This document shows, piece by piece, positions 1-46,980 of a DNA stretch of 64,000 nucleotides. The stretch comes from Psammoneis japonica (lineage: Eukaryota): positions 186,001-250,000 of the forward strand of contig QPGO01000085.1 of NCBI GenBank assembly GCA_008632985.1, given 5' to 3'. The notes beneath the pieces were generated by a model. That model was not told the origin of the DNA and searched no databases. It saw nothing but the letters and a program-made list of their open reading frames with translations. Both the position numbers and the translations under genes were made by a program. Position 1 is the first letter of the stretch, and each line of letters opens with the position of its first letter.

Positions 1-1920
1 CTCTTGATCACAGACCAGTGGTTGCTTGGTGGTGGTGACAGTTGATTCAGTGGTTCTGAAGGGACAAGCCAGCACCAACTTCCCATGTGGGACAGTGCCG
101 GCTCATCTGGCTGGATGGAACTCAAGATCTGCAAAGGCAGAAATGAGTTGCACATGCAACTGCAATGCTCATGCAAGTGTTGACAAAACCACATGCTTCA
201 GAGTGGGGTCTTTGCCATTTCTCTGAGAGTTTGGCAACAATGGCATGCAGGGCAGCTTTTCTTCTTTTCTGATTGACCCGTCACATGACACAACCAAAGG
301 GGCAAAGTGGCATCGTTGGTCAAGGCAAGGCTTGAGGCACTTGCACTTTTTCTCCTTTTCATGGGCCTCTGGGACTTTTTCTGGATCTTTCAAGTGATGC
401 AATTTTGCATCCGTGTCTGCAACTTGGACATCAAACATGGCATCAGTCAATCTTTGTCACCAACCTCACACTGGAATGTCACCTCGGTCACCTGTCTTTT
501 GACTTGCGAAGGTTCTTGGAGACATTGGCTTGCCCACTCTTCTTGGTGTTGTCCACTGAGCTCCTTGAGTTGTGGATGGGGTTGGTTTTGAGGTTTGTCA
601 CATGCTGAAGAGGGCTTGGTGGATTTGCCAAAAAGATCAGCCAGCTCGTCTCTGACTTTGTCATGTCAAGAGATGACTGGGCCACTTTCTTGCACTCCAG
701 TGCATGTTGTGTAGAAAATTTGCATCCATGTCCATCACACTCCTGGGGCAGGTTGGGAGGTGTTTCAGCACAGTGCACATGAAGGGCATCATGGAATTCG
801 TTGCTCGACAGCTCCACTCCATTCACGATGGAAGGGTGGACAGACAGCCAAGCACCTGTTTGTGTGCTTCTTCGCGTGGCTCTGGCTTTCTTGTCCTGCA
901 GAGTGCTGAGGCCATTGCAAAGTTTGCACTTGTTTGCAACATTCTTGTGCTCCAGAATGGTTGACTTGACTTCTTGGAGGTTTCTTGGTGAACCGCCGAT
1001 TGGAACTGAGCGCTCACCAGGGTGCTCGATTCACAGTTGTCTGGGGCAGACTTTGTGGGATGAGGGATTGAAAGTCCAGAAAATTTGATGGGTGGGGCGG
1101 ACAGGGCAATCCTGGGATCATCTTGGTCAACGTGTCATTGAAGAGTGCCGGCAGGAAGTGACAAGTGATCGCTTCCTCACTCTCTGCAAACGAGTCACAC
1201 CGCAGTTCTTCGCCACACACTGGACGCATTGCCACTCATGTTGCAGAGATTTTTGAATCCCTGCATGCACCATCTGGGGACACTTTGCTGCAATGTTGGC
1301 TGGACCTTTGACTGCGCTTGTCCACTTCTCGGACTTTTCCTCCATTCATTTCCTGAGTTCTTTCTCCCCTCGCCGATGAAACCGCCACATGGCGTCTGCC
1401 TCTTCCAGTGGTGACAGAGAAGCCAAGGTCACCAAAGTGACACTTTGCTGCCTCCAAGTTGCAACTTGTGACTGCTGAGATGTTCTTCTCATTGTCGTCG
1501 GGGTGACATCTGACTTGTGAACCTGGGGGGCTCTCGCAAGCGCAGGAAGAATGCTCTGATTCTTTCAAACCTTCCTGCGGCAGCTGAGTTGTCAGCACAC
1601 CATGGTGTGAACATGCCAGGGAATTCTTCATTGAGTTGCTTGACTGGTGGCAGAAGTCCCAGTCCGCAAGCAACCATTGCAAGCAGGTCGCCCTGCGTGA
1701 CACCTTCCTTGCGAAGAGGAAGAATGCCGTGCCGAAGTGTCCCCTCGGATGACTGGGACACTCCAATGCTTGCAGCAGTCAAATGTGAATCGGGTGCCAG
1801 AGGGCCAGATGTGTCCAACGCTGCAGAGCATTGGGATCCCATTCTCCTCGTTGAAGCCGTTGAAGGTGTCGATGAAGAGGAATCCGAGTTCGTCTTCGAA
1901 TTTGTTCTGACACAAAGAAT
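1..1920 (-). mobile_element. Decayed, 5'-truncated non-LTR retrotransposon with RT and C-terminal restriction-like endonuclease (CRE/R2-like RLE group)
   Basis: Minus-strand fragments GFLFIDTFNGFNEEN, EGVTQGDLLAMVACGLGLLP and PWCADN (decayed WYADD) are RT motifs. HALECKK is a zinc-knuckle remnant. DAMFDVQVADTDAK..HEKEKKCKCLKPCLDQRCHFAPLVVSCDG is an RLE motif. Many frameshifts; Tyr replaced by Cys/His. Confidence 0.88.
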
Positions 1921-1921
1921 T

Positions 1922-2451
1922 GACACGGGATCCACGGGTGCACCCGGGAATTGCGGGATGAAAGGGGAAAGGGGCAAATGGGAATGTTGGGAAAGCAAGG
2001 GGCCATCATTTTACATTGAGGGACCCTTAGTCAGCCGAACACGCACATTTCTCATTTGACCATCATAGGTCCGTCTCATGGGGGGTGCCAAAACGTCGTG
2101 CTTTGCCGCGTCTCGAGGATTAATCGTTATATAATTTATTCAGCTATTGAGGTTATATAAAATTGAAAATTCACACATTTAAAGCACGACATTTTGACAC
2201 CCCCCGTAGACGACCTGTGATGGTCAGATGAGAAATGTGCGTGTTCGGCTCACTAAAGGGACCCTAAAGATACCACCATTTGCACTCAATGATCGATTTC
2301 GACCAAATGCACACTTTTTGCCATACCCTGGTGTTGCCTGGTGAATCCGTGGATGCGGTGGTAAAATAATAGCATGTCACTTTTCCACAATTCACATTTG
2401 CCCTCCCTTTCATCCCGCATTTCGCAGATTCCCCTGGTGCCTGTGCTTGTC
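1922..2451. mobile_element. Older MITE-like element with degenerate ~90 bp terminal inverted repeats, containing a nested MITE
   Basis: tgcgggatgaaaggg..gggcaaatg..attttac (~1952-2014) is the imperfect reverse complement of gtaaaat..catttgccctccctttcatcccgca (~2361-2419). Confidence 0.55.
2020..2264. mobile_element. PIF/Harbinger (Tourist)-like MITE
   Basis: ~85 bp near-perfect inverted repeats (2020-2104 and 2181-2264) around an AT-rich core. Ends are GGG...CCC. Flanks tga/taa are consistent with a TWA target duplication. Confidence 0.75.
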
Positions 2452-3984: not shown

Positions 3985-4214
3985 TTACCTCAAGAAATGC
4001 CTGTTTGGCTGCTTGATGTTTTCTTTTATATTCAATTCCTCCAACTTCTTGTCCATTTCATCTGCAATCTCTGTGGGGTAAAGTTCCTTTGGAAGTGGTG
4101 TCTAATTGTCACCACCCTGTCCCTTTCTGCATTCCCCATGGATGCTTTCTTTGCATTTTGAAACCTGATCATGTCCAAGCAGCACCCATGATTAAAGAGA
4201 AAATGAGCATGTTC
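3985..4214 (-). pseudogene. 3' remnant of a paralog of the 14242-15441 methyltransferase, truncated by an insertion
   Basis: EHAHFLFNHGCCLDMIR aligns to EHAHLLADHGCYLDTVR; ttcctttggaagtggtgtct is shared. Homology stops abruptly after gagcatgttc (~4214). Confidence 0.85.
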
Positions 4215-7200
4215 AAAACACCTCTCTTTTCCCCATTCTTGATGCTCACTCTCATCTTCACTCATTCATCCCCACATTTGTCCACACTGGTGGTGTGCCA
4301 TCCATCATTTTTGCTGAGAGCAAATTTCCTTTGGAGGCCTGCCATCTCTTGGCTTGGTTCATCTCCACTTTTGACTGTGCATGTTGATCGGCAACACAAA
4401 AGGCCACAATGACATGGCTTGTCACTGCAACTCCCATTCCAGCAACATTTCCCAGATGAAGAGGGACTGTGACACTCCCCCCAGCATTTTAGCAACAATC
4501 CCTTGTTTGCTTGCAATTTGGTGGAACAAGAGAACATCCAGGGCATGGTGGAGGCTTCCATCGTGGCTGTGGAGGAAAGGCATCATGGCAAGGTGACTCT
4601 GCTGCTTGTGAACGGTGCAAGGATGTTTCCCAGCACTTGGCTCATCCCATCTTTTGGGATGTTCCTCATGGCAGAGGAAAGCATGGCATTTGCGGCATGC
4701 TCCCATGGGAGCTGTTGCATGCCTTGCACTTTGGTCTTTACAAGCACTCACTTCATGCATTCTTCAACTTGTGTCAAGTCCCAGAAGACATGCTGTCATG
4801 GTGCCACAACGTCATGTTGGTGACTGGGAAGCCACAATGGACAAATGACCATCTGTTGCCTTCAAGGAGCTCCCTGAGTTGTTTGATGAAGCTGAGTTCA
4901 AGAGACACTTCAGAGTTGCAACACATGCGTCCTGAAGACAAAGTGATTGAAAGATGCCAAGAACTCCATTTAAGAATGGAGCCACATGCCAGACTCGTCT
5001 TTCTGGCCAAGAGCATCCAGGTTTGTTGCTGGCAACACTTGCTGCAATGAAAGGCATGCTGTCAAAAGAAGACAACAGCCTTGAGCCACTGGAGAGTCAC
5101 TTTGCCCACCCAATGCTCATGTCATTCGGATTGGATGCAGCACTGTCCATGTCCTCTGACATGGAAAGCTTTCTCACTTGGCTTCAGAAAGGCCTTGTCA
5201 AGCATCTCCAATTGTTTCAATCCACAGTCGGCCCATTCAGAGAGTGCCGTTCTTGCTCCGGACTTTGCATGTCCAAGTTCCACAGCCTTTTTCACTTTCT
5301 TTTTTATGTGCATCAGTGTGGCAATGCCAACAATTTTTTTGGTGGATTCTGTGAAGCTCTTCTCAAGATGCTTCTTGAGCAACCTGCCAAAAACACATCA
5401 TTGACAGGACAGGCTGGACCTTGACATGTGATGAATTGTTGCTGCAAGGACCTTGTGGTCAGGGAATCAGAGAAACATTTGCTCAAGGCAGGTTGGCTGT
5501 GTGGACAAGAGGAAAAGGCTCTGCTGTTGCTTCATCATCTAATTGCACATGCACGGACCCCGCAACAGGATTCAAACCTCACAAATCTGTGTTGACAGCT
5601 GCCTGCATTGCAGTGGCAGGTCAAGTCAACAGATCATGGTCTGTAAAACATGGCAACAAGCAGCTGGAGACACTGTCCTCCTGTCCATTTGTTCCAGGTC
5701 ATTGTGGCAATGAATGGGCGGCTGCATTGCTGGATCATGCAGATCAGTGCAAAGCTTTCCCATTGACCCCATCAATTTTCATTTTGGATGTGATGCTCCA
5801 GCTCCTCCAATGACAAACATGACATCCTGAGATGTCACCCAAACTTTCACTCCCATCTGTGGGAACAAAGGAGTTGGCATGCTGGGCCATGGTCAGCTGG
5901 GACAACAACGAAATGAGCTGTTCCGTTGCTGCACGTGTGTTGTTGTGGGCAACCTTTGAAAACAAAGCAACCGGCCACAAATCAATGGTTTGTGCCATCC
6001 AATCTCTTTGAAGCTTCAAACCATCAAAAGATTCTTTGCTTTCCTTTTTTTGTTGGTGATGAAATGGAGCCCGATGTCTGAGTTGTTGATGCTTCTGATG
6101 TTTTGTCTGCTGCCTTTGTCCTCCCATCAACAAGAAGGTCCCCACAAGACCACTTTCCTGACAATTTGGAGGACACCACCCATTTTGTTGTGATTCTGCT
6201 AAGAACTGACTGGTGCCAGATGACTGCGTCATCAACAGAGGAACATTTGGACCCTGAAAACTTGGGTGAGTGCTGGCAAATGCTTGAAACATGCAACCAA
6301 ACATTGTCCCCTGTCAAATTTTAACCAACAAGCCATCACAGTTAATTGGTTGCATCAGTGGAGTCCAATGACAGTGATCCCATGGACAACAATGATTCGA
6401 TGCTGTCTGTGGGGGGCTCTGTTGACAGCAAGTCAAGCTCAGAAAATGTTTGTCCATGATCAATGTTTGTTTTTGGCGAGCTGATGAAAGAGAGGTCAAG
6501 AGCTGTCTTTTGCTTGGGAAAAGCACCGCTGTGCTGTTCTCCACTGTCATCGTCAAATGTTCATTTCTCCTTTGCAACCGTTCTTTTTGGTTGACTAGAA
6601 AGTCTGCCTTCAACCCCACTGACAAGGATGGGGACACAACCAAACACTCATTCACCATGTCATGCAAAGTCTGCAGCAAGGGGACTGTGTTCTTTCCCCA
6701 AAAAGCATCGCAGCTTGGGTGTGGCATGCATCCCAGGCAGTTTGCTTTCAGCTCTGATGTGATGCACTGAACCAACTCACATTTTCCAATGCTTTTCTCT
6801 GACAAGGAATTGCCAAGCAACAACACATTCAATGGTTTGCAGCATTGCAAAAAAGCTTTTGTGTGTCCCTTCCATGCAACTTGAACAATGTCCCTGTGTT
6901 GTTTCACACCAAAGGCCACTTTGGGTGTTGTGCATTTTCTTCCAGTCTGTTGGTTGCACCCAACTTTTGTGTTTCCAATGCCACTGTGCAGTGGAAATGG
7001 TGAAACATCAGCCAGCACAATGCCCCTGTTCTTGGCTTGGTCGAGCATGCACACTCTTTGTTTTGTTGTTTTTTCCTTGCGTGAATCAAGTGTGTTGTTC
7101 TTTGGGCCACACATCATTGTTTGTTTGATGGCAGAGAATGCAGAGAAAAGAGTTGAAAAAGAGGGGAAAAGTGTTTGCATCACCTGCATCACCGTGATTG

Positions 7201-8203
7201 GAAACACAGACCCCGTGATGTTTCTCAATGATGCTTTGCAGGACTGTGGGAAACAAGGCACTGCCGGCCTTGGGTGGCAGAATGTGTTCGATTTGTGTTC
7301 GGAGGTGGGAAGCAAAGGCATTTTGTTCTTGACCTTCCCATGAAGTTGAGGGCCAACGGGCCAACCTTCTTCTGAAACTTTTGACAAACTTCAGGCTTGT
7401 GGAATTCATTGTCAGACCTGTCCTTTTCATTTTTCGGATTTTTTGGGAAAAGATGTTCCCAAGCCATCAAGGCAAAGGGACATTTGGAGTTTGCGCCGGC
7501 ATCCAGGAGTGAATGGTGATTCATGGTGTTGCCAATCCCTTGTTTGGACAGAAAACCCAGAGAGAATAGAAGAGAACTGCCCACCTTTGAGTTGCCCATC
7601 TTCTTTGCAAGGTTGGTCTCCAAATTTGTCATTTTGCTGGCATGAAGGGTCTGTTTCTGAGCTTTCTGGAGAGAGGATGTGGTCTTGTTGGCAGTTTCTT
7701 GCACATCTTTTTGTTTTGGTTTTTGCAGAAGCCATGCATCAACCAGCAAAACAAAAGCCACATTCTGCAATCTTTGCCAGACATTTGGTTTGGGTTCATG
7801 CCACAAATGGTGCGATGCTTGGAGGCTCCAAGCAGCTCGGCAGTCTTGTGGGAAGGGACTTCATTGTGCTGCTGGAGAAATTCAATGTCCTCTTTTTGAA
7901 TTGGAGAGCAACAGTTCTCAGACACATCATTGGAGGAGTTGGCTTCTTCGTTGGTGGAGGCAGCAGCTGCGGCAGCAGCTGCAGGGTTGTTGGCCGGCGG
8001 AGCAGCTGTGCAGATGGAGAGCCTTGAGGATGCCAAGGGCCAGTCCTGGAGCCTTGCCTGGGTGGCCTGTTGGCAGCAGCTTGGCCTGGTGCTTGAGCAC
8101 CTCCACTGCGACCTCTGCCACAGCCACCTGTGCCGCTGGTGTTGCTGGCATTGTTGCGGCCAGCCACTGGCGGGCTCACCTTCTTCCTTTTTTTGGGCGG
8201 CAT
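4215..8203 (-). pseudogene. Large decayed coding region of unknown origin: N-terminal NLS-like motif and possible UDG-superfamily-like domain
   Basis: Starts MPPKKRKKV at 8203. The 6314-7387 frame contains RGIVLADVSPFPL, KPLNVLLLG and MPHPS. TpA is nearly absent throughout. Confidence 0.4.
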
Positions 8204-9479
8204 GGTCAACAAGAGCACAAAATGGAAAAAAAGGATTGAGTGAAGTCCTGGAAATGGGAGTGCAAAGGCAAAAATGTGAAATTTCCAATCTCAACAAGAA
8301 CACTTTAATGTGATGAAATGAAGCTTGTTGAACAAATTTGAGACATCAATGGCCACATGATTCATCGAGGTTGTTTGAAATCATTCAAACCATCGCATCA
8401 CAATGCAAAGATTGAAAATTTTAAAACCAAATGTTGTTGCTAAAAAAGAGATGCTGGTGGGAATCAACAGATGGTGAGGTTTACAGTTTGGCCAAAAACC
8501 AAAAACACGAATTGTCCCTCCCCCTCAAGACACAGAAAATGCAAACTCAAGGCGCAAGCAATGAGAGAGGCAGTGACAGGCAGCAGCATTGCGGCTGGGA
8601 CAGGATCAAGCACAGGACACAAGGTGAGAAAGACAAAACAAGTGGTGAGTGCATGGAGATGGGGTGCACAATCCAAGCAACTGACACTTGCACACATCTT
8701 TGCACACAGAAATCCAGACAAGGGACGTGGGCAGCAACGGAAGATGGAGCAGCAATGGAAGACGGGGCAGCGGGGATGGGCAACAAGCAAAACCCACTTT
8801 TTGGTGTTTGCATGGTTCAGGCAACACAGAGGGGGGCACTGACAAGCCTTTTTTGTCACATCTGCTGCAGACCCAGCGTTTTTCTTGGCAGGCAGAGGGG
8901 CCGCCATGATGTGACCATGAGAGAGAGGGAGGCTGGCCACCACTGTTTTGTGCTGGTGTGGGGAGCCTCAAAATTTTCCAAACAGAGCAAAGATGGTGTT
9001 CTTCATTTTGCAATTTTCCAAGACCAGGTGGCATGATCACACGTCGATCTCAGTGTTGACACTGCAGTCACATTGAGTCCTGTGTGAGATGCTGCTGGAT
9101 GGAAATCTCTTCGAGGGGTGTCCGTCAGCCAATGGACCATGGAGATTTGAAAAAAATGGTTGCACTTGGCCTGTCCTTCCATGCGTTCACAAAACTTGTG
9201 TGGGATTCTACACACGCAACATTTCGTGGGGCGATGCTGAAATGGCAGTTGCGCCAATCAGGCCTCATTCAAATTTGTGTGAGAGGCCAACACAAATGGC
9301 ACTTTCACGATGATGATGCGGCGGCGGCGTCTTCAGCACGTTCCCGCAGCCATGCCACAGCAAATGCTTCTAGATGTGACAATGTGTTGGAAAGTTTGAA
9401 AGAGATCTGTCTCATTGGTGGCGTCTCTGACGGTGTTGTTTTCAACATAAATTTGTGGACTGGACCACACATTGTGGCA

Positions 9480-29531: not shown

Positions 29532-29546
29532 GGCTTTGTATCAACA

Positions 29547-29816
29547 AAGAAGGCAATTTGCCCGATTTGCTAAGCTTCATTTGAGAGAGCAGAAAGTTGT
29601 CACACGAGTTGATCACTTCAAAGCATGGTAACTCTCTATGGTAGCAGGCAGTTCAGCCAATGAGGTAACTCCACGAAAAATTCAAAAGTACTGGGGCTCT
29701 AGTAAGTAGAGTAGCTCTACTAGCTAGAGTACCACCGAGCTAGCATTCGAACCCTAGGAGGGAACAGGGAGTTTTTTGAGATTCGGAAATAGCAACTCTC
29801 TACTAGCTAGAGCTCT
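29547..29816. repeat. Upstream region of the alpha-kinase gene; unmutated copy A of a ~270-bp direct repeat
   Basis: Aligns with 31684-31955; gttgtcacacgagttgatcacttcaaagcatgg is identical in both. Confidence 0.9.
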
Positions 29817-29879
29817 ATCTTACAAGTAGCTAAGGTAGGAGCTACCAGTTCGGATATTTATCCAACTATTCGATAAATA

Positions 29880-31660
29880 GCAGGCACAACAACGTTGGCC
29901 GAAGTCAGGAGAGGGGCTTTCGCGGTGGCTTCATCAGCGGCCGGCTCAGGCATGGGTTCATCGCTTTCTTGTAGAGAGTGGTGTGAATGCGCGATCCTCG
30001 GAGTGTCATCGTGAGGTCCATGAAATCCACTGTCAGGGATCTTGGACTTGCTACCCACGTGATTTCAAAGTCATTGAGTCTGGAGGTAAAAGCTTCCCAA
30101 CGTGGTGCATCAGTGGCAGGGTCGGCAATGTGCCAGATGCTGAGTGCCTCATCACAATTAATCATTCGCAGTTGACAAGGTTGGGGCCAAACTCCTCCAG
30201 GAGCATGTCCTCATGGATGGCACAATGCAAGGTGGCATGCGGGGGCGCTGGTGGTGTGCCCATGGTGGTCCCGTTGCGTTGGTGCCAGGTGGTGCCACTG
30301 AAGGTGAAGACATTGTTCTTCACAACAATTCAGAGGGCTTCAATCAGTGCTTCAATTGGCAAATTTTTGTGGACTGTTCATGTCATCAGAGGCAAAGTGC
30401 AATCTCTCAAAGTGCTCTGGTGGTGGGTGTGTTCAAATGACAAGCCTCAGCATCAGATGTGAACAGGAGGCAATTTGGTGGCATTTGCAGTTGGACCAGT
30501 TCATTCTTGAGGTCCAGGGAGCTCTTGAAATGAGACCATTGTTTGCGAGCAACTTGTTGGAGCTGGTCATCTGCCCAAACCCCCAGGCCATGCAGCAGGC
30601 CACCGCTTGTAGAGATGATCAGTTGGGGTTGCAGCGGCGGGGATTTGTGAACCTTCAAGGTCATGCAGAAGACAGAAAAGGGGGTTTTGTTGGCGTCAGT
30701 GAGGTTTTTCAGAAACTCATGTTCCATGGTGGTAAGATCTCCTTTGCATTTGTTGATCCAATTGCCAATGAGTTTTTTTAAGTCAGCGCTCTTGTGCAGC
30801 GGCTTCGAATGTGCTTGAGTGTCGGCATGTGGTGTTGTTGCCAAGGTGGTCACAAAAAGCCATTTTGATGTGCTCCATTGTTTCAACAATGGTTGGTCCC
30901 AGGTTTTTGTCACACTGGGCAATTACGAAGTCATCCTGTTTGCACAGGCAGGAAAGAGCACGTCGTTGGCACAAGGCAGCAGGTTGGTTCTTCCTGGTTT
31001 TTTGGCAAAGTGCTGTGCAAGTCTGGCTTTGAAGTTGGTGCATCTGCACTTGACAGCATCAGAGAGCTTCCAGGGTGGTGGTGTCCAGGAAGACTTGGCA
31101 TGCATTGTTGGGTTGCAGTCTCCGCCATCGTCAATGGCGGCATTGGCAAAGCAGCCTCACTCATCTGGAGACCTTTGCTTGAATTGTCCAAGTGAGTTCT
31201 CTTGCATCTTGATGGACTTGCCACTGCTGGCACAGCATGGTGTTGGGACAAATTTTGGGCTGAGGCTGAGCAGTGGTTGGAGGTTGCGTGGTGGCTGAAG
31301 TGCAGCAGTGTGCAATCATGGAAAGCAAGATGATGTGGCCTGCTCCTGAAGCAATGTCATGCTGGCGTGTCACCAAGGTGGGTGAACAAGGCAAGGCATT
31401 GTGTCGCAGTGCTCTTGAGGGATCAGCAGCAACAAATCTGCAGGTTCGGCAGATGTGCTGACAGACGATGAGCTCTGGCACCTGCTCTGATTGTCAGTTG
31501 AGTGCTGCTTCCTCTTTTCTGTGATTGCTGCTTCAATTTTGACGAGCGGTGATGCTTGCTTTTGGAGGTGCTGGTGGTGTGTTTGTTGGCATCATTGGCT
31601 TTGTGGTGTGGTTAAGGGTGGGGTTTCTTCAGGCGATCCGATGTGACACTTTTGCCTTTT
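29880..31660 (-). mobile_element. Decayed Penelope-like retroelement (RT; GIY-YIG part not seen)
   Basis: CDKNLGP, FCMTLKVHKSPPLQPQLIIS, LFTSDAEA, GTTMGTPPAP, VDFMDLTM..IHTTLYKKAMN are Penelope RT motifs; adjacent hammerhead motif. Confidence 0.85.
29897..29942 (-). ncRNA. Minimal type I hammerhead ribozyme motif, Penelope-associated
   Basis: Minus strand reads ggccg CTGATGA a gc cacc gc GAAA gcc..gac TT cggcc. It has both core boxes, a 5-bp stem I, a 2-bp stem II and a weak stem III. Confidence 0.6.
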
Positions 31661-31683
31661 TTGTGATGCGACACCCATGAACG

Positions 31684-31955
31684 AAGAAGGCGATTTGCCC
31701 GAGCTTGCAAACTTCATCAGACAGCAGAATGTTGTCACACGAGTTGATCACTTCAAAGCATGGCAACTCTCTGCTTGCAGTGGCAAGCAATTCTCAGCCA
31801 ATGAGGCAGCTCCAAAAAAATTCAAAAGCACTGGGTCTGGCAAGCAGAGTGGCTTTGCCAGCTCTGGCTGGAGCACCGCCGAGCTGGCATTTGAAGCTCA
31901 GAGGAACAGAGTTTTTTGAGATTTGAAACAGCAACTCTCCGCTAGCCAGAGCTCT
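31684..31955. repeat. Hypermutated copy B of the alpha-kinase upstream region
   Basis: Same sequence as 29547-29816 with nearly every TA changed to TG or CA. Confidence 0.9.
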
Positions 31956-32330
31956 CTCTCTCTCTCTCTCCCTCTCTAGTAGAGGGTTACTCTAGAGCTA
32001 GAGTAGAGAGTGGCAGAGAGAGATGAACACGGATGGACGACTCTCGAATCAATCTTGAATGATCTTGAATTTTTTGGCGCAGTCGTACAAAAAACGCATG
32101 GAATCAGCAAAATTTTTAATTCTATTCCTCATGTTCATATGTCAAAAATGTCAACGCGGATAATGATAATATTCACACATTTATGTTATGATCGAAAAAT
32201 TTAGTATCAGATTTCCTGTTTACTATTTTTCCCTCCAATGAGGTGCAAGCCACAAGACCGAAACCGCTTACGTGTAACCAATAACCTCCAGAAGTCCTAT
32301 TCGACCATTATTCGACCGGGATAGTAGACA

Positions 32331-35300: not shown

Positions 35301-36421
35301 TATTCAATTGCCAAAAGGGCGTGCACTAACCGTGACGGGATCCAACTTTGCAGCTGCTTTGTACATCGGAGAGGACCCAGAACTTAGTACAGGTTCCATC
35401 CCATCTGAACTGGGTCTTTTGACCGATCTGCGTAAGTTCGTATGACCTCGCCCTTGCCATGTGAAGCACCGAGAGTTGTTTCTGACGCTTTGCATTGTGT
35501 CCTCTAGAAATTCTGTGGTTACGAAGCACCGGCATCGGAGGGACGATTCCAGTTGAATTGTCAAACTTGAGTAGCATTCTTGAGTTGCGTCTTGACAAGT
35601 GAGTTTGTTCATTTCGTGAATGCAACTGAACGCGTCGATTTCTCTCGCTGATTTGTCTCATGAGCTGTCCTATTTGGTGCGATTAGCAACTTGTTGGACT
35701 CATCCGTACCATCCGAGATTGGAAGGCTGGAGTCACTCACAGAGCTAAGATTGGAAGGGAACCAGTTGACGGGTTCCATGCCCGCCACAATCGGCTCGCT
35801 TACACTGTTGCAGGATTTCCGTTTCGCACGAAACCGAATCACCGGACCCCTCCCGGAAGAAGTTGGAAATTTGTTGAATCTTGAGATTTTGCGTTACGAA
35901 ACGAATCTGATGACGGACCGATTCCAAACTCAATCACAAACTGCATAAGTCTCAGACGACTGTACGTCGGGGACAACTACCATACAGGAACTATTCCTGA
36001 AAACATTGGAAACCTGGGGGCTTTGGTAGACTTCCGAGCCTCTTTGACTCGCTTTGACAGCGATGGATTCCCCGGCATTGTTGGGCCATTGCCTGCCTCG
36101 ATTGGCAATCTGAGAAATCTTGAAGTCTTTGAGTGTTTTGTCTGTGGCCTGACTGGTGAAATTCCGACAGGATTCGGCAATTTGGATTCTCTTGAAAGGT
36201 TGGACTTGGAATCTAACTTTCTTACTGGGGCTGTGCCTGCTGAGTTGGGGGATTCCGATAGTCTCGAAGGGCTTTATCTTGCGGGAAATCTCCTTACCGG
36301 ATCTGTACCCGATGAAGTGTGTGCAAACGACGGCCTCGACTTTATCAGCATTGACTGCTCGAATGTCGATTGCGACTGTTGTTCCATTTGTGTTCCCACT
36401 GAGGACCCAGATTTTGTGTAA
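32331..36421 (+). CDS. Type II membrane LRR protein (charged N-terminus, TM helix, PT linker, multi-exon LRR ectodomain)
   Basis: TM YAIIGIVLLALLALILII; TPSP repeats; QRYALATL; ECSWAGVTC cap; LxLxxNxLxGxIP repeats separated by several GT-AG introns; C-terminal DCSNVDCDCCSIC. Confidence 0.88.
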
Positions 36422-38829: not shown

Positions 38830-41000
38830 CTCACACCCCAATGGGGAGAGTGATTTTTGTGATGTGCCTTTCCTGTCAGAAGTGCTCGAGCGAATGCATT
38901 CAAATTGTCAACCAAGGCCACCATTGCCTCTTGACAAGACAGACTTGCAGCAGCTTTCAAGGATGGTGGGTGGGCCTCCGAATTGAAAGAAGGGTGGCAG
39001 TCGACAAAAGCCAAAGGGAGGAACCTCGTGACAAGTCTTTGGAAATTACACCAACTGCCATACCACCTCGCTCAGGGCAATCCACCAGCTGACAAGGATC
39101 CATCAATGGTGTGGCACAGGGGCACATCTGACTTGTTCGGGATCCAATCATCTGTCCCGCATTTGTGGCTTGTTCCACCTTCATCAAGAAGCAGCTGGTT
39201 GTCCAATGGTTGCCAGACAGCAAGTTTGTTGAACTGGGAGAATGCAAACAACCCCAACATGCAGAAGGTGGAGAAGGCGATGCTTGGCAGCAAAGGCAAT
39301 CGTCCAATGTCGCTTGAGAGGGGAGCAGCAAGTCACAGGTGATCCTTGCCACACACACCACAACAAATTGAACAGAATGACAAAGTAGAAGAAAAGTGAG
39401 TTGTCTCTCTCTCTGCAGAGCACTCAACAATGACAACACTCTGTGCCTTTTGCAGTCACAGCATGTGCTTGCAAGGAGCACAAGAGAGGCAGCAGCAGCA
39501 GGGAGGGCAAGAGAACTCATTTGGGCTGCATTGACACGCAAGAGAAACTGCAACATCCTCAACAAACTCTGCCTGCATCAAGGAAGCATGATGTCAGTTT
39601 GGCTCACATGCAAAGTGGTGCTCCTGTTGACCACATTTCTGGGTTAGACACTGTGTGAATGAGACCACAACACAAACCCACATGGCCAGCTCTTGACTTC
39701 AACAGTGATGGCATTCTGCAGCATTGTGGCATTCTGCGCCATTGTGCAGCTGCAGCACATGCTTGCAAAGAGCATGAAAGAGGCAGCAGGAGGGCAAAAC
39801 CATTCATTTGCGGGCTGCATCAACACACGCAATTTGCAATGCCCTCAACACAAGCTTCCTGCATCAAGGAAGCATGTTGGTCTGGCTCACATGCAAAGTG
39901 GTCCTCCTGTTGATTGCTGCATTCCCAGGTTAGATGTTCCTGTGCAAATGAGATGCCACATCAACCCTTCTGCACAATGTTGTTTCTTTTTGCTCACTTT
40001 TGCTGATGCTGCAGACCACCACAAATTAGTTTGAGGGTGATGTGAGCTCTGCTCCTTTGATCTGGCATTGCAACACAACTGCAAAACATGACCTCTGCAG
40101 AGTGATGCTCCTTGTCAGCTGTGCCTGCTTGTTGCTGGTGGCTTCGCATGCCTTCAAATTGCAATGAGGGCATTGAACAACACACATGTTGGGTCACATT
40201 TGGAGGCAGTTGGGTGGGTGGGTGTCTTTTGTTTGTGTGTGGTGATGGCATTGCACCCCTCACTGACAAGAACCTGCATGTGGAGGAGGAATGAAAGTTG
40301 CTGCCATTGAGGGCTGTGGTCTCACCAAGTGCCAGAAAATGGAGATGCTGCCAAAAAGCAAGAAAGAGAATCTCTGCTTTGGTGCTTTGCACAAGAAACT
40401 TTGCTTGAGATTGAGTCTCTCTTGAGTTGTTGAGGGTTGTGTGCCAGCACTGGCCTGGGGCAACCCCAGCCACCAGAAGATGAGGAGCTCCAACACGTGT
40501 TGTTCCTGGGTGGAGAAGCTTCTCACAGGCATTGGCAAGGAGCTCAAAAGCTGGTGCCTTCTTGCTGGAGCTGTCACCTCATTGGTGGGAAGCTCTCTGC
40601 ACTCTAACAACCTCTCTGTGCCCCAATGATGGGGCTGTTGCAGGTGTGGCAATGTCAAGATGTTGGAGCATCCAGAACAAGCAGGAAACACAAGAAACCC
40701 AGACAAGAAATTGTTGAACAGAAGATGCTCTGGCTGCTGATGTGGTGGATTTTGTGACACTTTTGAAACAAAAACACATTCACTGCCAATCTCACTGACC
40801 TTCTTTCATCTCACTCTTTGGAGTGAATCATCTGGCTCACATGAGTTGCATTGTGGCATCAATGGGTGCCCATTGCATTGTAAGATTGAAGTTTGTTGAG
40901 GACTTCCAGGCAAACCATGGCTGCCACAGCAGCCAGAACAAGTGCAACAAGCAGTGCAGGAAACCTCACAGGGGGGTTCCTTTCAGCAACATTGACTCTT
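38830..41000 (+). pseudogene. Decayed TpA-depleted sequence with internal ~295-bp-period duplication (39460-39935); 3' part paralogous to 46550-46895
   Basis: gcatcaaggaagcatg..ggctcacatgcaaagtggt occurs twice; gaacaagcaggaaacacaagaaaccc is shared with ~46565. Confidence 0.55.
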
Positions 41001-41149
41001 GTTGATTTGACATTCACTCAAAGAGTGGACAGGCACTGCATTTGAAGCACACAGGTGCTGACCTCCATGCAATCATCTGAGATGGGAAACCTGCATCATG
41101 AGTGGCAGGAGAGGAGGCAGAACAAGTGCCAAAGGCTGAGGATGTGACT

Positions 41150-44100
41150 GAGGCAGAAGAAGTCTTTCCATGACAAGAACACCAAGACCAACCCAAACAA
41201 TGAAGTTTCATCCATCATCAATGAACAGCAACTTGCACAATGCAGCATGTGAAGACATCAAGAGAAGATCATCAATCATGATGTGCAGAAAATGTGATCA
41301 GGGTGCACATCTGGCAAGGTCTCCAGAAGACATGAAGTGCAAGATGTTTGATGATGTGAAACCCACATTGGGAACACCAAAGGTGGTGATGCCAGAGGCA
41401 ACTGCCTCAGTCTGCTGGGACATGGCAGACAAGAGATCATGAGAAGAAAAAGAATTGGAGCATGAGTGCAAGGCTGCACTTCATGACTGCAACAAAAAGT
41501 GAGGAAGCTTGAGGAAAACAAGACTGCAGCATTTGCAGCAATCCCAGATGATTGCTGTGCCAAGCTCATGAATCAGAGAGTGCTGGCTGATCCCAAATGT
41601 GAGAGCATCAGAGATGACCCAATCAAGCTGTTGAAGCTGATCCAGTCACTTGTGCTCAACTCCATGAGAGGGCGACACCCATTCTGTGCACTTGCCAAGT
41701 CTCTCAAGCACGTGTCACTTGGACATGCGAGAACAAGAGGATGAGTCACTGAATGACCAGCTGTCAAGATTTAAGAATCAATGAGATGCTGCAAGTGAGG
41801 GATTTGAAGTCATTTTTGTGATTCAGTCTGGTGAAGAAGAGCCTGTCCATCATCCCTGAAGATGTGGATGGAATGGCAGCCATTTGGGGTCCACCAACAG
41901 ATGCATTGAAGGGCACGACCGAGTGCACACACCATTCCCATGAAAGGAATGTTGCTGAGGCAACTCCACCTGAAATCTGTGAGAAGCAGAGAGAAGGTGT
42001 GACCCTCTGCATTGATGTTGTGGAAGCATGTGCTGTGTTGAGCTGCTGCTGTGTTGAGCTGCTGCTGCACGTGGTTGACAAGATGATCAAGTGTTGATTG
42101 AGTGTGAGATTGAGGTCTAAGAAGCATGATCATGTTTGTGAAGCCTTGGACATGATGATTCTCTGACAGTGCAACATGGCTCTGTTCAAGATTGACATTG
42201 TCTCAAGTGTGATCCCAAGTTCAAGGACATGCTGGCAGAAGTTGTGGATGGCATGAATCTAGAGCTCATGTCTGTGAATGCCAAGGACCATGTTCCAGAA
42301 GTCAAGTGGAGCATCCAAACCATCAATGAGCAAACCAGAGCCACTGCACATCACATCACATGCCATGCAAGACAGTGCCCAAGTTGATGTGCAAGCAAGC
42401 CGTGACAAAGAACACTGTCATGTCAAACATGCACCCACAAAAGGAGGAAGGAATTTCTGACTCTTGCAGTCCACACACCATTCTTGTGCAATGAAGAAAC
42501 CTTGACTGACTGCAACAAACATTTTCAGCTTGAGTTGGGGAACTTGTTGTTTCCCACATTGAGAATGAGAAGACAAACACTGTGGAAGCATGTGGCATTG
42601 ACAGCATCCACCTCCTGCGACCATGTTTTGATTCAGCGCTGAAGGGTGGACACCATGCCATGAACCTGCACATGGGCAAGCTTTCAAATCCCTGTAAGTG
42701 CACCTCCATTCTCTTGACTGACATGCATGCCACAGCTGTTGAGGACGTGGCCATTGGGGACAAGGCATCAAGCAACTCAAATCACAGGAAAATTTGGAGA
42801 TGATTTGCATGTTGTGCAGATTTGACTGTGGGAGCACACAATGACAAAACCAAAAGTGACCGCAAAAGCAATGACAAAAGCAAAGAAAGCAAAACAATGT
42901 AAACCACACAACCAAGTCAGAAGATGAAGACCATCAAGATGAACCTGTCTCTTGTGATGAACATGATGCAATCAAGCAAATGACATGCCAGCTGATGAAA
43001 GGTTCAGATTCCTCAATCAACAACACAAAGCTCAAGAAAAGAGCAAGAGGTTGAAGAAGACCCAGAAGACAATGAACACTGTGACAGTGAAGAGTCCAAA
43101 GAGGATGAAGAATCCCAGGAAGACATGAGATGGGGAGGTGAGTGATTGGAGGAAGAAGCAAGAGCTGTGCCAAGCAGAGCTGCAAGAAGCGTGAAGCAAG
43201 CATTCAAGGCATCCTTCAACATGAAATCACATGAACACCAAGACAAGAAAGTTTGATTTGCAGGAGTCGCAGATGCTGGAAAAGCAGCAAAGAAGCAACA
43301 AAAGCTCAAACACTGCCATTGTCTGTGTGCTGACGTGAGCCCCAATCCAGAGAATGACATTGAATGTGAAGCAGAGACAGCAATGGCACTTGCATGCTTC
43401 ATCTGTGAGATTGATGACCCACTCAGAAGTGGAGAGGGTGCATGTTTTGCCTGGCAACATTTGCTCTGTGAAGGCCTCAAAGCATTTGGCCAGAAGGAGT
43501 GTGATGCCTCAGAGAAAGAAATCAGACAGTTGCACAACCAAGTGTGCTTTGCACCAGCAGTGTCAGTCAAGGACATGACTCCAACTGAAAGGACCAAGGC
43601 CATGGTGGCCTTGATGTTCCTCACCAAGAAACGAGATGGTTGCATGAAAAGGCGAGTGGTCTGCAGAGTGGCAAACTGACCCAAGAATGACAAAGATGAG
43701 TCCACCAGCCCCACTGCATCCCTTGAGGGGACATTGACAATGGCCCAATCTTTGACACTCATGAAGTGTGACATGAAATGAGTGCTGACATTCCCAATGC
43801 ATTTGTGCAGACAATGACACCAGAGCCTGGAGAAGGCAAAGACCAGATTGTGATGAAGATTTCAGGAGCGATGGTGGACATGCTGGTGAGCATCAATCCC
43901 AACCTGTGCAGAGGCCTTGTGTTCTCCCAGAGAAAGGCAAGAGAGTCCTTTGTGTCCAAGTTGTCAGAGCCATCTGCGGCACACTGATCGTGGCTCAGTC
44001 ATGGTGCAAACAATTTTGCAAAGACTTGGAGAAGACAGGGTTTAAGTTCAACCCACACAATCCATGCATTGCTGGTCAAACAGTCAATGGCAAGCAGCAC

Positions 44101-45250
44101 ATGATTTGATTTCATGTGGACAACCTGTTGTCAAGCCACAAGAACCCAAAAGAAAAAGACAAATTTTTGAGCTGGCTGAACAAGATGCATGGAAGCTGCA
44201 GTGAAGTCATCGCCACAAGAGGGAAGAGACACAACTGTCTTGGCATGACCTTGGACTTCAGTCAGAAGGGAAAAGTGAAAATTGACATGGCAGACTGCAT
44301 TTGTAAGATGGCCAATCAGTTTTTCTGGAAAAGCCAAAGAGTGCTCCAGATTTTGCCATGACACCAGCTGGAGAGACCAAAAGATGTTTGACACCTGTGG
44401 AACAAGATTGTCAGATGAGAAGGCTCAGACCTTCCACATGTGGGTGGCCAAGAAAGAACTGTTTGTGTCCAAGAATGGCCAAATGGATGTGCACCCCGCT
44501 GTCACCATGTCATGAACGTGTGCAAGAGCTCCCACCAACAAGGATTGGGGGAATCGGAAGCTGGTCCATTGTCTCAAGCACATGAACCGGACAAGAAAGG
44601 AAGTCACTGCATCAATCATGAAGGACCTCCAAGTTGTCAAGTGGTGTGTGGAATCATCATTTGCAGTGCACCCCAATTTCAACAGCCCCACCAGAGGAAT
44701 CACAACAACAGGCAATGGAGCAGTGCTGGCCATCTTGAAGCACCAGAAGCTCAGCACCTGCAGCAGCTCAGAAAAGCTGAACTTGTTGGAGTTGATGATG
44801 CCATGACTGTGATGCTGCGGACAAAGCTGTTCATGGAACACCAGGGGCATCCAATCAACAAAAATGTTCTGCAACACCAGGACAACAAGAGTGTGATGCT
44901 GCTGGAAACCAATGGGGCGCAAGAGTGCCAGCAAGTGATTGCAAGCACTCAACATGTGGCAACTCACAACAAGAGTGCCGGCAAGTGATTGCAAGCACTC
45001 AACATGCAGCATTCCTTTGTCGCAATCAGATCAAGAAGGGCAACTTGCAAGTGCAGTGTTGTCCTGCCAACAACATGTCAGGAGACTTCATGACAAAGCC
45101 GCTGCAAGGCAAGAAGTTTTGAAAGTTTAAATGAGCCGTCATGGGCTGTCAACTTCAAGTGCAACAGGTGCAAGTCCTTTTCATTGGGATGCCAGACAAG
45201 AATTCTGACACATGTGGGTAAAAGATTCCTGACACCAGACAGGAAGGGCA
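41150..45250 (+). mobile_element. Decayed Ty1/copia LTR retrotransposon (CoDi-like): gag, integrase, RT, RNase H
   Basis: DDPIKLLKLIQ (gag); AAIWGP, VTLCIDV, DHVPEV (integrase); LMFLTKKRDG, SADIPNAFVQT, VVRAICG, FNPHNPC, HVDNLL (RT); SSFAVHP, AELVGVDDA, QDNKS, DFMTKPLQGKKF (RNase H), in copia order. Confidence 0.92.
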
Positions 45251-45299
45251 CCAAACTGAAGGGTTCAACAGCAACCACACAATCTGTGGCTCTGCGGTT

Positions 45300-46980
45300 G
45301 ATTGATGAAGATGATTGACAACTGTGACATCAGAAGAGTTGCACGAGGTGACTGACAACTGCAAGTTGTTCAAACTGGATGACAGTGTGATGACATTGGC
45401 ACCCAGCAGCAGCCACAGGACTGCTGTCAGAAGAGGTTTCACATGGCCTTGAGAAGCTGCAAGAACATGAGAGATTGGCATGGTGCAACAAGGAATGTGC
45501 TCAAGGATTGCATGAGAGAGCAATGCATGGGGATTGACACTCCACCCCAGTCCTTGCATTTGTTGCAATGCTGTTGATGCATGTGAAATCAGCAGATCAC
45601 ACAAGAGAATGAGGGTCAAGGATCAAATCCAGTGTTCCCAACATGGGGCTGGAAAGACAAGGGCCTGTGGAGAGCCCTGTGGTTGTAGAGGCACCATGAA
45701 ATGAAGGAGCAGAAGAACACCTTGATGGAGATGACAAACACAAGTTGTGAAGTGCATCAACACATGTCACCACCAATGCACCTGTGTTTTTTGTCCTCAG
45801 CAACAAAGGGGTTGCACTCCAAACATTGGAACATGCCACCAAAGCACACAAGATCAAAGAGCTTTGGCAAGTCCTGGGTGCTGTTCCTGGAGACAGAACA
45901 AGCACACCTGCATGAGAGATTGACCTCCACTGCCAGGTGAAGAATGTCTGTCACCCAAATGGGAGGCTGGAGCAAGCAAAAAGCAGCAGCTTTGCCTCAA
46001 CAAGACTGACATCAACAAACTGTGTTGCAAGTTGTTCCCACCTTTGGCATGAGCAAGAATGGGATTTGTGGTTCCCTCATGAAGCTCCAGGAGCAAGACC
46101 CCATCAATGTGTGAGATTGATGCAGACTCATGACAGCTGCCAAAGGGGCAGAGTGTGCAATGCCAGGAATTTGGCAGCATCTTTCTGCCATGAGACTCAA
46201 TGACCACTCAAACTTGAGAGGTGGCACTGTGCCAATGTGGCATTCCTGGATCTGTCTCCAGAGGCAATCAACAGTTGGGTCACAAACCGGGTTGGACATC
46301 CAGAAAATGAGAACGAGAAAGAGAAGTCTTGCCATGCTTGTGCAGAGCACTTTGTGGAGAATGTTCATGGAGTTACACGTGCGTTTGATGATTTGATTGA
46401 TTGCAGCTGTGGTGGCAGCAAGTGCGTGTGTTTGCATGTTTGTCAATTGTGGGACGTTGAGAGCACCCTGAAGCAAGTGGCGCTGACACCGAGAGTCCTG
46501 AGCAGACTGTCAAGCCACAAGATGAACATTGTTGCAAGCATCAGGAGTGTGTTGGAGCATCTGGAACAAGCAGGAAACACAAGAAACCCGGGCGCAGAAT
46601 TGTTGAAGAGAGTGCACTCCGGCTGCTGACGTGGTGGGTGCATCTTGTTGTGACACTTTGGAAACAAAAACACACTCATCACCAAACTCACCAACCTTTT
46701 TTTATCTCACTCTTTGAAGTGAATCATCTGGTTTGTGTGAATTGTGTTGTGGCATCAGTTGGCACCCATCACGTCACAAGATCTGAGTTTGTGTTGATGA
46801 CTTCCAGGCAAACCACACACAGAGCCTCATGTGGCAGCCAGGACAAGTGCAACGAGCAGTGCAGGAAACCTTGTGGGATTCCCTTTCAGTGACATTGTCT
46901 TGTCGGTTCAACACAAGAGGCCAGGCAACAATTTTTTAATGGGGTTGGCATGCCGCAGGTGTGTTGGAGTGTCGGCAGCG
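45300..46980 (+). pseudogene. Decayed TpA-depleted coding-like sequence, paralog of 40670-40990
   Basis: LEHLEQAGNTRNP and VNHLVCVNCVVASVG..DKCNEQCRKPCGIPF align to LEHPEQAGNTRNP and NHLAHMSCIVASMG..NKCNKQCRKPHRGVPF. Confidence 0.55.

Follow-up and report, generated by a model that had tools for sequence, protein, structure and literature searches.

Transposon islands of the diatom Psammoneis japonica with the signature of TpA to TpG/CpA hypermutation

Intergenic transposon islands in the nuclear genome of the diatom Psammoneis japonica have probably undergone a local hypermutation that acts at the level of DNA and is specific for particular dinucleotides. In the window (the whole stretch of 64,000 nucleotides that was analysed) there are four islands in which TpA has almost vanished and CpG is depleted. 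The direction of the change, its restriction to TpA and CpG, its strand symmetry, the sharp borders of the islands and the independent change of each copy after integration are all points that we regard as very well established. Judged from sequence, the islands belong with the kind of TpA to TpG/CpA hypermutation that was described in 2026, in that case for integrated viral or foreign sequence in Bigelowiella natans, where it is TpA-specific (Mettrop et al., bioRxiv 10.64898/2026.01.13.699255, 2026).

The composition of the islands (Table 1; 17,203 bp in the test) differs from that of the rest of the window in four dinucleotides. The observed/expected ratio for TA is 0.04 inside (49 sites) and 0.60 outside, and that for CG is 0.24 inside and 0.97 outside, with CA and TG at 1.81 and 1.74 inside as against 1.17 and 1.15 outside. 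The remaining 12 dinucleotides shift by at most 0.13, including AA (1.15 inside, 1.13 outside), TT (1.24 and 1.16) and AT, which is likewise unchanged. All Y-R steps summed come to 23.8% inside and 24.0% outside, and such near-equal totals are what interconversion among Y-R steps predicts. About 7% of TA and about 25% of CG survive inside the islands, the loss of TpA being the more complete. Per 500 bp, TA ratios in the four islands, which are 2-8 kb long, are 0.00-0.22, and CA/TG ratios are 1.4-2.1. The proposal in the initial annotation that mutation is restricted to sharply bounded transposon islands is in good agreement with these figures, and its suggestion that loss of CG is a parallel component is supported by the low CG ratio.

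The four islands have no DNA similarity with one another. A Pfam scan covering 150 ORFs, all but two (from the repeat block at 9.9-10.7 kb) of the 152 in the islands with at least 70 aa, gave no real match; the lone row, Toxin_22 (E = 0.0019, 18.7 bits with a cut-off of 25), was taken as chance in a Cys-rich pseudo-ORF. For the D2 ORF at 6317-7390, no homologues were found among proteins of 196-627 aa. At its edge D2 merges into a G+C-rich tandem-repeat block that extends to about 10660 and is partially depleted. No viral genes were seen in the islands. A CTAG-rich palindromic motif flanks D3, and was considered as a general boundary element and rejected, being absent at D1, D2 and D4.

Table 1. 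Islands, repeated segments and retroelement features of the 64-kb window
Feature	Position	Strand	Description
Island D1	1..2010	.	Continues past window start; 1 TA, 54 CG in 2000 bp; no Pfam match
Island D2	4150..9400	.	4200-9400: 17 TA, 75 CG in 5201 bp; no Pfam match
Copy A	29543..29816	.	Unmutated ~275-bp segment, 22 TpA
Island D3	29882..31975	.	TA-free, CG-poor: 10 TA, 51 CG, 243 TG, 197 CA in 2094 bp
RT-like retroelement relic	29938..31389	-	Frameshifted, 3'-truncated; phmmer, tblastn
Copy B	31680..31955	.	Mutated version of same ~275-bp segment, 1 TpA remaining
Island D4	38830..46950	.	TA-free, CG-poor; 39000-46950: 21 TA, 61 CG, 903 TG, 943 CA in 7951 bp
5' LTR, Ty1/copia-like	40661..41002	+	Direct repeat with 46550-46903; X1 joints 40823->46855, 46589->40791
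Degenerate Ty1/copia-like pol	41532..45161	+	tblastn map; homologues carry PF07727
3' LTR, same Ty1/copia-like element	46550..46903	+	Direct repeat with 40661-41002

The pair of sequences that drew attention to this region, a segment of some 270 bp said to be present once outside and once inside a domain, is indeed as described. There is an identical 33-nt core at 29596-29628 and 31731-31763, with 0 chance matches expected, and dense TA ends at 29878 and resumes at 31977, the only TA positions between being 29972, 30052, 30087, 30159, 30610, 30733, 30779, 30924, 31613 and 31943. Copy A adjoins the ATG at 29531 of an alpha-kinase/vWA gene (Pfam Alpha_kinase, 7.5e-32), directly upstream on the minus strand, and copy B is at the right end of D3, upstream (minus strand) of the RT-like relic. 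The two are 78.6% identical across 294 nt by blastn. In a MAFFT alignment (columns 24-314), 219 positions match and 50 carry substitutions; 22 of the 50 are on the 44 TpA bases of copy A (12 T>C, 9 A>G and 1 A>C), all but one of these 22 being A>G or T>C transitions. Tabulation by dinucleotide, as recommended in the initial annotation, gives an odds ratio of 7.0 for TpA bases relative to other positions (Fisher P = 1.3e-7). At the 22 TpA sites of copy A, copy B has CA at 11, TG at 8, CG at 1 and TC at 1, with 1 kept; the 19 that are now TG or CA exceed the at least 14 claimed earlier, and the single double change of TA to CG is confirmed. From copy A to copy B the totals go from 22 to 1 for TA, from 10 to 21 for TG and from 20 to 31 for CA. 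The precise figures vary with the aligner: a second one gave 264 aligned positions, with 41 mismatches and 16 steps between TA and TG or CA.

Two statements about the pair have to be modified. Loss of CG is found, but three rather than two of the six CG of copy A are altered (C>T twice and G>A once), with three kept. Likewise the TA-free stretches were said to be near-identical, and this is only partly so, as 28 of the 50 substitutions lie outside TA; divergence outside any Y-R step is 6.7% (10/149). Runs of same-strand outcomes along the pair number 9, with about 10 expected, and so give no hint of processive tracts on one strand, by a hand count on too few sites for a conclusion.

Copies A and B are one leader of about 275 bp in two settings, before a host gene and inside a dead retroelement. 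Copy A keeps its TpA and copy B loses it, and targeting would therefore follow the island, through its state or its position, and not sequence homology. Copy A is perhaps younger than the mutational episode and not shielded from it. The copies could be terminal repeats, although the relic is a truncated one. In read set X2, which has RNA-like behaviour, there is a contig across 29256-29681 that overlaps copy A and no contig over the islands; the latter carries no weight for or against silencing.

The direction of change, from TA to TG or CA as first suggested, is backed by protein outgroups and by environmental relatives. In D4 all 6 of 6 homologues that map to the pol region carry PF07727 and, with an LTR pair and pol both present, the element is Ty1/copia-like. 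At its conserved codons 204 of 322 are identical, and the losses are concentrated in particular amino acids: Tyr is kept at 0 of 17 positions (TGT 5, TGC 4, CAT 4, CAC 3, TTC 1), Arg at 2 of 17 (CAA 3, CAG 2, TGC 2, TGA 2, TGT 1, CAT 1, others 4) and Ile at 2 of 13 (ATG 4, ACA 1, Val codons 6), with 11 of the 15 changed Arg positions now CAN or TGN. The Tyr codons have become TGY in nine cases and CAY in seven, which bears out the claim that both strands are affected, there being no sense-strand bias.

In the case of D3 the relic corresponds to residues ~19-513 of its 620-700-aa homologues (495 phmmer matches, the best at 4e-30), and 104 of 142 conserved codons are identical. None of its four conserved Tyr codons is kept (CAT 3, TGC 1; P = 0.0045), and at the 17 positions with Tyr in three or more homologues it has TGY at 4 and CAT at 7. 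Its 171-aa ORF has 0 Tyr, as against 4.0% Tyr in 31 homologues, and there are no Tyr-poor proteins among 150 homologues of the relic. Over the two retroelement proteins, 20 of the 21 TAY Tyr codons in conserved columns have thus become TGY or CAY, 16 in pol and 4 in the relic. The metagenome loci coding for relatives of the RT-like relic have TA ratios of at least 0.40 in 80 of 80 cases (median 0.64) with no TA-free 500-bp window in any, in a set retrieved by a Tyr-containing peptide pattern and hence biased against TA-free copies.

The relic had been assigned to Penelope. Penelope-like elements have an RT of their own type, and usually a GIY-YIG endonuclease and terminal repeats. The motifs are, we presume, PLE-like in appearance, and no GIY-YIG endonuclease was seen. 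Eight long homologues gave 0 Pfam matches at E <= 0.001, the weak RVT_1 match in one homologue (E = 0.0042) being below the cut-off, and a PDB sequence search with the profile of the RT-like protein gave 0 matches. On sequence similarity the relic appears to be RT-like, with no Pfam match above threshold, and the name Penelope is not established.

That the process acts on DNA in place, another of the early proposals, is supported by the LTRs of the D4 element. The two are at different members of the TG/CA pair in 11 of 63 aligned steps (15 of 66 with MAFFT), and the figures for other repeats within islands are 8/50, 13/97 and 3/51, as against 6/324 for controls of comparable divergence, namely four pairs of paralogous gene segments (P = 3.6e-8). 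Outside the islands ~40% of Y-R steps are TA or CG, and random resolution of each of these would give ~20%, with which the LTR discordance agrees. As the LTRs differ by having TG or CA, conversion occurred in DNA, after insertion and independently in each copy. These are old elements, the LTRs differing at 9.1% (15/165) of positions outside Y-R steps. Three gene paralogues in the window that are 79-84% identical are not mutated, and the paralogous gene segments, of 0.8-1.1 kb, each keep 16-26 shared TA.

The process is possibly ongoing. Differences between the window and read set X1 include TA to CA at 30052 and 45686, 2 of the 12 full-depth differences listed for D3 and D4 among the 40 given of 55, so that any signal of recent activity there amounts to two sites. 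There are also three paralogous contigs that carry TA at positions of CA or TG in the window (42890, 44121 and 44410; P = 0.002). Given the age of the elements no burst is required: a moderate excess in rate would suffice, which we estimate at not less than ~30-fold per TA base, this being a lower bound because the TA sites are saturated.

It has to be asked whether the sequence is real, since long-read basecallers err at modified motifs, and modified bases in transposon DNA could be miscalled in a genome that in truth retains TA and CG. The few substitutions and 1-nt indels that separate the window from X1 are what such errors could leave. However the contigs of X1 hold the TA-free sequence, and with a word depth of ~61 and a longest contig of 315 kb they are typical of accurate reads, although X1 may be the assembly's own sample and is not fully independent. 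The X1 contigs over the islands have 0-9 differences each, with none at 31077-31760 and 9 at 31734-40827. Every site is steadily TG or CA, where strand-specific miscalls would clash between strands, and multi-copy TA-free words (depth to ~1490 at 44121) have the same letters across several copies. An artefact of basecalling, which had been named as a possible refutation, is thus very improbable. The opposite polarity, with the islands keeping an ancestral TG or CA and a RIP-like C>T change at CpA and TpG having made the TpA of copy A, would draw on the fact that fungal RIP produces exactly such a change and that copy A is locally TA-rich (TA ratio 0.95 in 29501-30000 compared to ~0.6 elsewhere). 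It is however refuted for the islands, and we give it almost no credence: His or Cys codons stand at the 21 conserved Tyr of two unrelated retroelement proteins, none of which is kept, relatives have normal TA, LTRs that were once identical now have TG in one and CA in the other, and no natural ancestral state would have a TA ratio of 0.04 across 17 kb. Nor is it at all credible that transposon families evolved avoidance of TA and CG through selection or as an intrinsic property. TA-free words are multi-copy in X1, and some copies therefore have converted sites in common, which such a history would explain. But the coding capacity has been destroyed, with loss of conserved Tyr, Arg and Ile, Arg gone to a TGA stop twice and 0 real Pfam matches; four unrelated sequences have the same composition, and the normal TA of relatives and the TG/CA discordance of the LTRs are again contrary to it.

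Editing of retroelement transcripts by an ADAR-like A to I enzyme, fixed via reverse transcription before integration, merits the least weight of all, being refuted by the LTR comparison. The LTRs are discordant by 11-15 steps at converted sites, sense-strand T>C matches A>G in frequency (CAY compared to TGY), and conversion extends to D1, D2 and the sequence that flanks the copia-like element, all of which count against it, even though two islands hold retroelements and ADAR-type enzymes are described in the preprint text as preferring U before the edited A (10.64898/2026.01.13.699255). What is left is the same phenomenon with other chemistry. The thymine of TpA might be altered enzymatically, as by hydroxylation through an enzyme of the TET/JBP type, mispair with G and yield T>C, or mismatch or patch repair in heterochromatin might be biased at TpA from T:G to G:C. 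Because of the strand symmetry, A>G after T looks in sequence the same as T>C before A. Background in its favour is the preference for TpA and TpC ascribed to 5-hydroxymethyluracil in dinoflagellate DNA, and the loss of CTAG to CCAG and CTGG that is attributed to very-short-patch repair in E. coli. The Pol eta form of this idea, patch repair with a WA hotspot, was a candidate of the initial annotation and is now disfavoured, as ApA should be hit too and ApA/TpT is unchanged. Repair from T:G to C:G tuned to deaminated 5-methylcytosine should regenerate CpG, which is instead depleted. Taken together these other chemistries are unlikely, though not negligible.

With regard to known systems, the name RIP-like given at first holds only as a loose analogy. 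RIP in ascomycete fungi makes C>T changes at CpA that create TpA, and mutates both copies of a duplicate. The islands resemble its products in that transitions at a single dinucleotide degrade transposons in situ and produce regions of aberrant composition in which similarity searches fail. The polarity is however opposite, TpA being destroyed here and created in RIP, and mutation of all copies triggered by homology is not what we find, since copy A and the gene paralogues are intact and copy B is mutated. Decay of 5-methylcytosine in methylated transposons would account for the CG to TG or CA half of the change, to which the Arg CGN codons that became CAN or TGN may be ascribed, but cannot affect TpA, nearly all of which is lost. 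Animal ADAR (A>I in dsRNA) and APOBEC3 (C>U in cDNA) likewise give clustered, neighbour-biased transitions in defence against selfish elements, but they act on RNA or replication intermediates and on one strand, whereas here integrated DNA is changed on both strands equally.

The closest likeness is to B. natans, as far as the preprint text describes it. Mutation-accumulation lines gained 231 new mutations in two viral inserts, of which 230 were A>G or T>C, all of these at TpA, and in some cell lines new mutations arose at ~1e-7 per site per generation. The genome has 124 clusters that are depleted for TpA and enriched for CpA+TpG (cut-offs TpA <= 0.43 and CpA+TpG >= 1.52), the CDS poor in TpA are enriched for RT and DDE domains, and an ADAT2-like deaminase has been proposed for the process (10.64898/2026.01.13.699255). 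Clustered depletion of TpA with gain of CpA and TpG is found in all four of our islands, at levels well past those cut-offs. As in that account, only TpA is struck, apart from the loss of CpG here, the outcomes are TpG and CpA on either strand, and the footprint is in discrete regions of foreign or mobile origin, such as the copia-like D4 and the RT-like relic of D3. There are also differences from what the preprint reports. The host is a diatom, a stramenopile, and not a rhizarian chlorarachniophyte; the change is read from fixed differences, where new mutations were observed in that study; retrotransposon relics take the place of a giant-virus or virophage insert as targets; and depletion is near saturation (TA ratio 0.04), their NCLDV region having a Rho of 0.45. 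Our islands have lost CpG as well, a dinucleotide with 0 occurrences in the text of the preprint, the supplements being separate from this count. The suggestion that the phenomenon was undescribed in diatoms stands to the extent that we found no diatom report in the literature, but the same signature is already in the B. natans preprint.

Within the islands a TpA is converted by change of A to G, giving TG, or of T to C, giving CA, in effect the same A:T to G:C transition on either strand, until nearly all TpA has gone, and most CpG has decayed to TG or CA in the same islands. The TpA component is, on balance, likely to be an active host process targeted to silenced foreign or repetitive DNA, as the analogy with B. 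natans suggests, and may be of the same kind as that seen there in real time. For the chemistry our tentative choice is enzymatic deamination of the adenine after T, in DNA and on either strand, by way of inosine to G. The CpG component would be ordinary deamination of 5-methylcytosine in putatively methylated transposons.

Such islands have consequences for annotation. They defeat homology-based annotation of transposons, with 0 real Pfam matches from 150 ORFs; their Tyr-free pseudo-ORFs, rich in Cys, His, Trp and Gln, may be called as orphan genes; and they bias inference of methylation from dinucleotides. They also come with built-in clocks and controls in the form of LTR pairs and of a mutated and an unmutated copy 2 kb apart.

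Removal of TpA from foreign DNA had one prior report, the 2026 preprint on a chlorarachniophyte, and as far as that account goes a saturated signature in a diatom means that the process is no peculiarity of one alga, and widens its scope from viral inserts to ordinary retrotransposons. Some diatom species are transformable and gene-editable, so the enzyme should be findable. It is a more doubtful step, taken by analogy, to suppose that diatoms have an active, locus-targeted defence by DNA editing, in which an enzyme homologous to the Bigelowiella system deaminates adenine after T in the duplex genomic DNA of silenced invaders. If that is true, it would be an old immune mechanism, SAR-wide or wider among eukaryotes, in which transposons and viruses are erased by removal of TpA, with all Tyr codons lost, TAG stops turned to sense and TATA-like signals removed, and the enzyme would act in nature as an adenine base editor on duplex DNA.

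The four islands of the window (D1-D4, see table) are almost free of TA and poor in CG. Over their 17.2 kb the observed/expected ratio is 0.04 for TA (49 sites) versus 0.60 outside, and 0.24 for CG versus 0.97, with CA (1.81 versus 1.17) and TG (1.74 versus 1.15) in surplus; no other dinucleotide shifts by more than 0.13. The four Y-R steps (TA, CG, TG and CA) sum to 23.8% in the islands and 24.0% outside, and this constancy means that the lost TA and CG are accounted for by the surplus TG and CA. TA is the more fully lost, with about 7% surviving as against about 25% of CG. Depletion sets in and ends within a few tens of bases, and these sharp borders are intergenic. We found no DNA similarity among D1-D4, and the depletion is thus not the property of a single repeat family.

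Islands of the window and the transposon remnants within D3 and D4
Feature	Position	Strand	Remarks
Island D1	1-2010		
Island D2	~4150-9400		fading out by ~10660
Island D3	29882-31975		
Island D4	38830-46950		
RT-like relic	31389-29938	minus	tblastn with 11 long relatives; frameshifted, 3'-truncated
D4 direct repeats (LTRs)	40661-41002 and 46550-46903		flank pol
D4 degenerate pol	41532-45161	+	6/6 relatives with copia-type RT domain PF07727

The TpA that survive, found in all four islands, are not a random sample: 12 are in TTAA, versus 74 of 1847 outside (about 6-fold enrichment), and none of the 49 is in ATAA, ATAT, CTAT, GTAT or GTAC. Possible reasons are a flank that the process disfavours, or the origin of new TA from CA or TG. 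Adjoining D2, 9400-10700 consists of degenerate tandem repeats (G+C 0.60) with partial TA and CG depletion (TA obs/exp about 0.3) and very high CA and TG (about 2.0).

A Pfam scan of 150 island ORFs gave no real match, and searches of greater sensitivity identified D3 and D4. For the minus-strand D3 ORF at 30410-30922 there are 495 relatives, the best at E = 4e-30; among the RT-like relatives of the D3 relic one has a sub-threshold RVT_1 match covering the whole model, with no above-threshold Pfam and no PDB matches, and from motifs that we take to be Penelope-like they are candidate members of that family. The D4 element is a Ty1/copia-like LTR retrotransposon. The host is a diatom: the named relatives of the neighbouring alpha-kinase/vWA gene (47-55% identity) are from Epithemia, Pseudo-nitzschia, Nitzschia, Seminavis, Thalassiosira and Cylindrotheca. 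The long ORF 32328-34625, for which there was no Pfam match, includes five 21-bp (7-codon) tandem units (33420-33545) encoding Ser/Asp/Glu-rich repeats.

A segment of about 275 bp is present both as copy A (29543-29816), which has TpA, and as copy B (31680-31955), with an identical 33-nt core (29596-29628 and 31731-31763; none expected by chance). The copies have 78.6% identity over 294 nt by blastn. In the MAFFT alignment 219 positions match and 50 are substituted; of the 50, 22 affect the 44 bases that make up the TpA of copy A (12 T>C, 9 A>G and one A>C; odds ratio 7.0, P = 1.3e-7). The initial annotation had reported TG or CA in copy B at TpA of copy A, and this is borne out for 19 of the 22 steps (CA 11, TG 8), the others being CG, TC and one TA kept. 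A second aligner gave 41 mismatches and 16 TA<->TG/CA steps, and exact counts thus vary with the alignment. Apart from TpA the copies are not near-identical as had been stated, since 28 substitutions are away from TpA and 6.7% of non-Y-R positions differ.

The right end of the 2.1-kb island D3 is formed by copy B, which lies upstream of the RT-like ORF. Its position there matches that of copy A, which immediately precedes the minus-strand ATG (29531) of the alpha-kinase/vWA gene. Taken as 29531-29816 and 31668-31955, both copies end just before an ATG on the minus strand. A contig of the coded read set X2 (29256-29681) reaches from the gene into copy A. Either the gene has a transposon-derived leader or promoter, or a host leader was captured by the element. 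X2 is labelled 'DNA?' and shows RNA-like behaviour, one contig skipping 86 nt with GT..AG ends (38363-38450), an intron in a sugar-transporter gene (36869-38626). Both edges of D3 (29696-29850 and 31976-32020) carry a CTAG-rich motif of CTCTAG/CTAGAG units that is partly palindromic; it recurs at 36755-36790, and the borders of D1, D2 and D4 lack it. Read set X1 has multiple copies of the motif (depth ~1000 near 29913; joint 32020->36771), which may be where an active high-copy element ends.

For polarity we used protein outgroups, as Tyr codons (TAY) contain TpA. Relatives of the copia-like pol have 322 conserved codons, and at 204 of these the window is identical. All 17 conserved Tyr are lost, and 16 are now TGT, TGC, CAT or CAC. 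Arg is kept at 2 of 17 positions (CAA/CAG 5, TGC/TGT 3, TGA 2, CAT 1, others 4), the changes being CGN->CAN/TGN, and Ile at 2 of 13 (ATG 4, ACA 1). The RT-like relic has 104 of 142 conserved codons identical and none of four Tyr (CAT 3, TGC 1); where at least three relatives have Tyr (17 positions), 11 are CAT or TGY and one TAC is kept. None of 150 related proteins has less than 1% Tyr, and TA obs/exp is at least 0.40 in all 80 metagenome loci of relatives, found with a search pattern that contained Tyr. With conserved Tyr and Arg lost and the relatives not TA-poor, TA and CG are ancestral and TG and CA derived, and not the reverse, which would have told against the initial annotation.

On integration, both LTRs of an element have the same sequence. 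Those of D4 have TG versus CA at 11 of 63 aligned TG/CA steps (15/66 on the MAFFT alignment), by far their commonest adjacent double difference, and other in-island repeats are discordant at 8/50, 13/97 and 3/51. In four similarly diverged control pairs (16-22%), which are paralogous gene segments from outside the islands, the figure is 6/324 (P = 3.6e-8). Such discordance requires an ancestral TA or CG resolved separately in each copy, and hence conversion in integrated DNA. The 17-23% in the LTRs is close to the 20% or so expected from random resolution of TA and CG, which account for approximately 40% of Y-R steps outside the islands, and nearly all conversion thus came after insertion. Outcomes at Tyr codons use both strands equally (pol TGY 9, CAY 7; relic TGY 4, CAT 7), which together with the LTR discordance excludes RNA editing before reverse transcription. 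From the 9.1% difference at non-Y-R positions of the LTRs and the ~7% TA survival, the excess rate per TA base is estimated as at least ~30-fold, a lower bound because of saturation.

That the TA-free sequence is a sequencing or assembly artefact is very improbable, as X1 contigs carry it (no differences over 31077-31760, nine over 31734-40827), each converted site is consistently TG or CA, and several TA-free stretches occur in more than one genomic copy. X1 is possibly the assembly's own source sample, with word depth (~61) and contigs (to 315 kb) typical of accurate reads. Among the 12 full-depth differences between X1 and the window listed for D3 and D4, surviving TA is read as CA in X1 at 30052 and 45686, and at 42890, 44121 and 44410 CA or TG of the window corresponds to TA in paralogous contigs; the numbers are small and match what an ongoing process would leave. 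X1 and window differ also at several CG/TG or CG/CA sites in islands (45528, 45564, 40145, 46379). The differences may be allelic or recent, and the dinucleotides affected are just the two that are mutable.

The changes are A:T->G:C at TpA on either strand and CG->TG/CA, in place and in islands only, which supports the core of the initial annotation. Its analogy with RIP is not supported, and the process is not RIP, as neither testable defining feature of RIP is found. Copy A keeps its TpA despite its homology to copy B 2 kb away, as do three gene paralogues that served as controls (3057-4214, 11681-12624 and 13362-14469; 0.8-1.1 kb, 79-84% identical, within 11 kb, TA and CG normal), and duplication or homology alone is thus no trigger. 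The process would rather follow the state or extent of a putatively silent island, although copy A could simply be younger.

We infer that the process is targeted and driven by an enzyme. Its simplest chemistry would be deamination of adenine that follows T, as the Bigelowiella preprint also hypothesises; a modification on the thymine side or biased repair would be compatible with the same sequence. The Pol eta-like enzyme (WA hotspot) suggested initially is disfavoured, ApA being untouched. Loss of CpG would most simply be by 5mC deamination, and one paper associates diatom 5mC with silencing (PMC12344493).

The suggestion of the initial annotation that the signature was undescribed is not supported. 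We found no diatom report in a literature word search, but the text of a preprint on B. natans (Mettrop et al., 10.64898/2026.01.13.699255) describes it: of the 231 mutations newly acquired in two viral inserts by mutation-accumulation lines, 230 were A>G or T>C changes, all at TpA, at rates of ~6e-7, and the genome has 124 clusters depleted of TpA and enriched in CpA and TpG, with RT and DDE domains enriched in TpA-poor CDS. That text makes no mention of CpG, diatoms or LTRs. We class the window with this recently described hypermutation, the signature being the same but in a distant lineage, in retrotransposons, at saturation and coupled to CpG loss. The window generalises a very recent discovery to a group where a search for the enzyme could succeed, and it offers natural controls.
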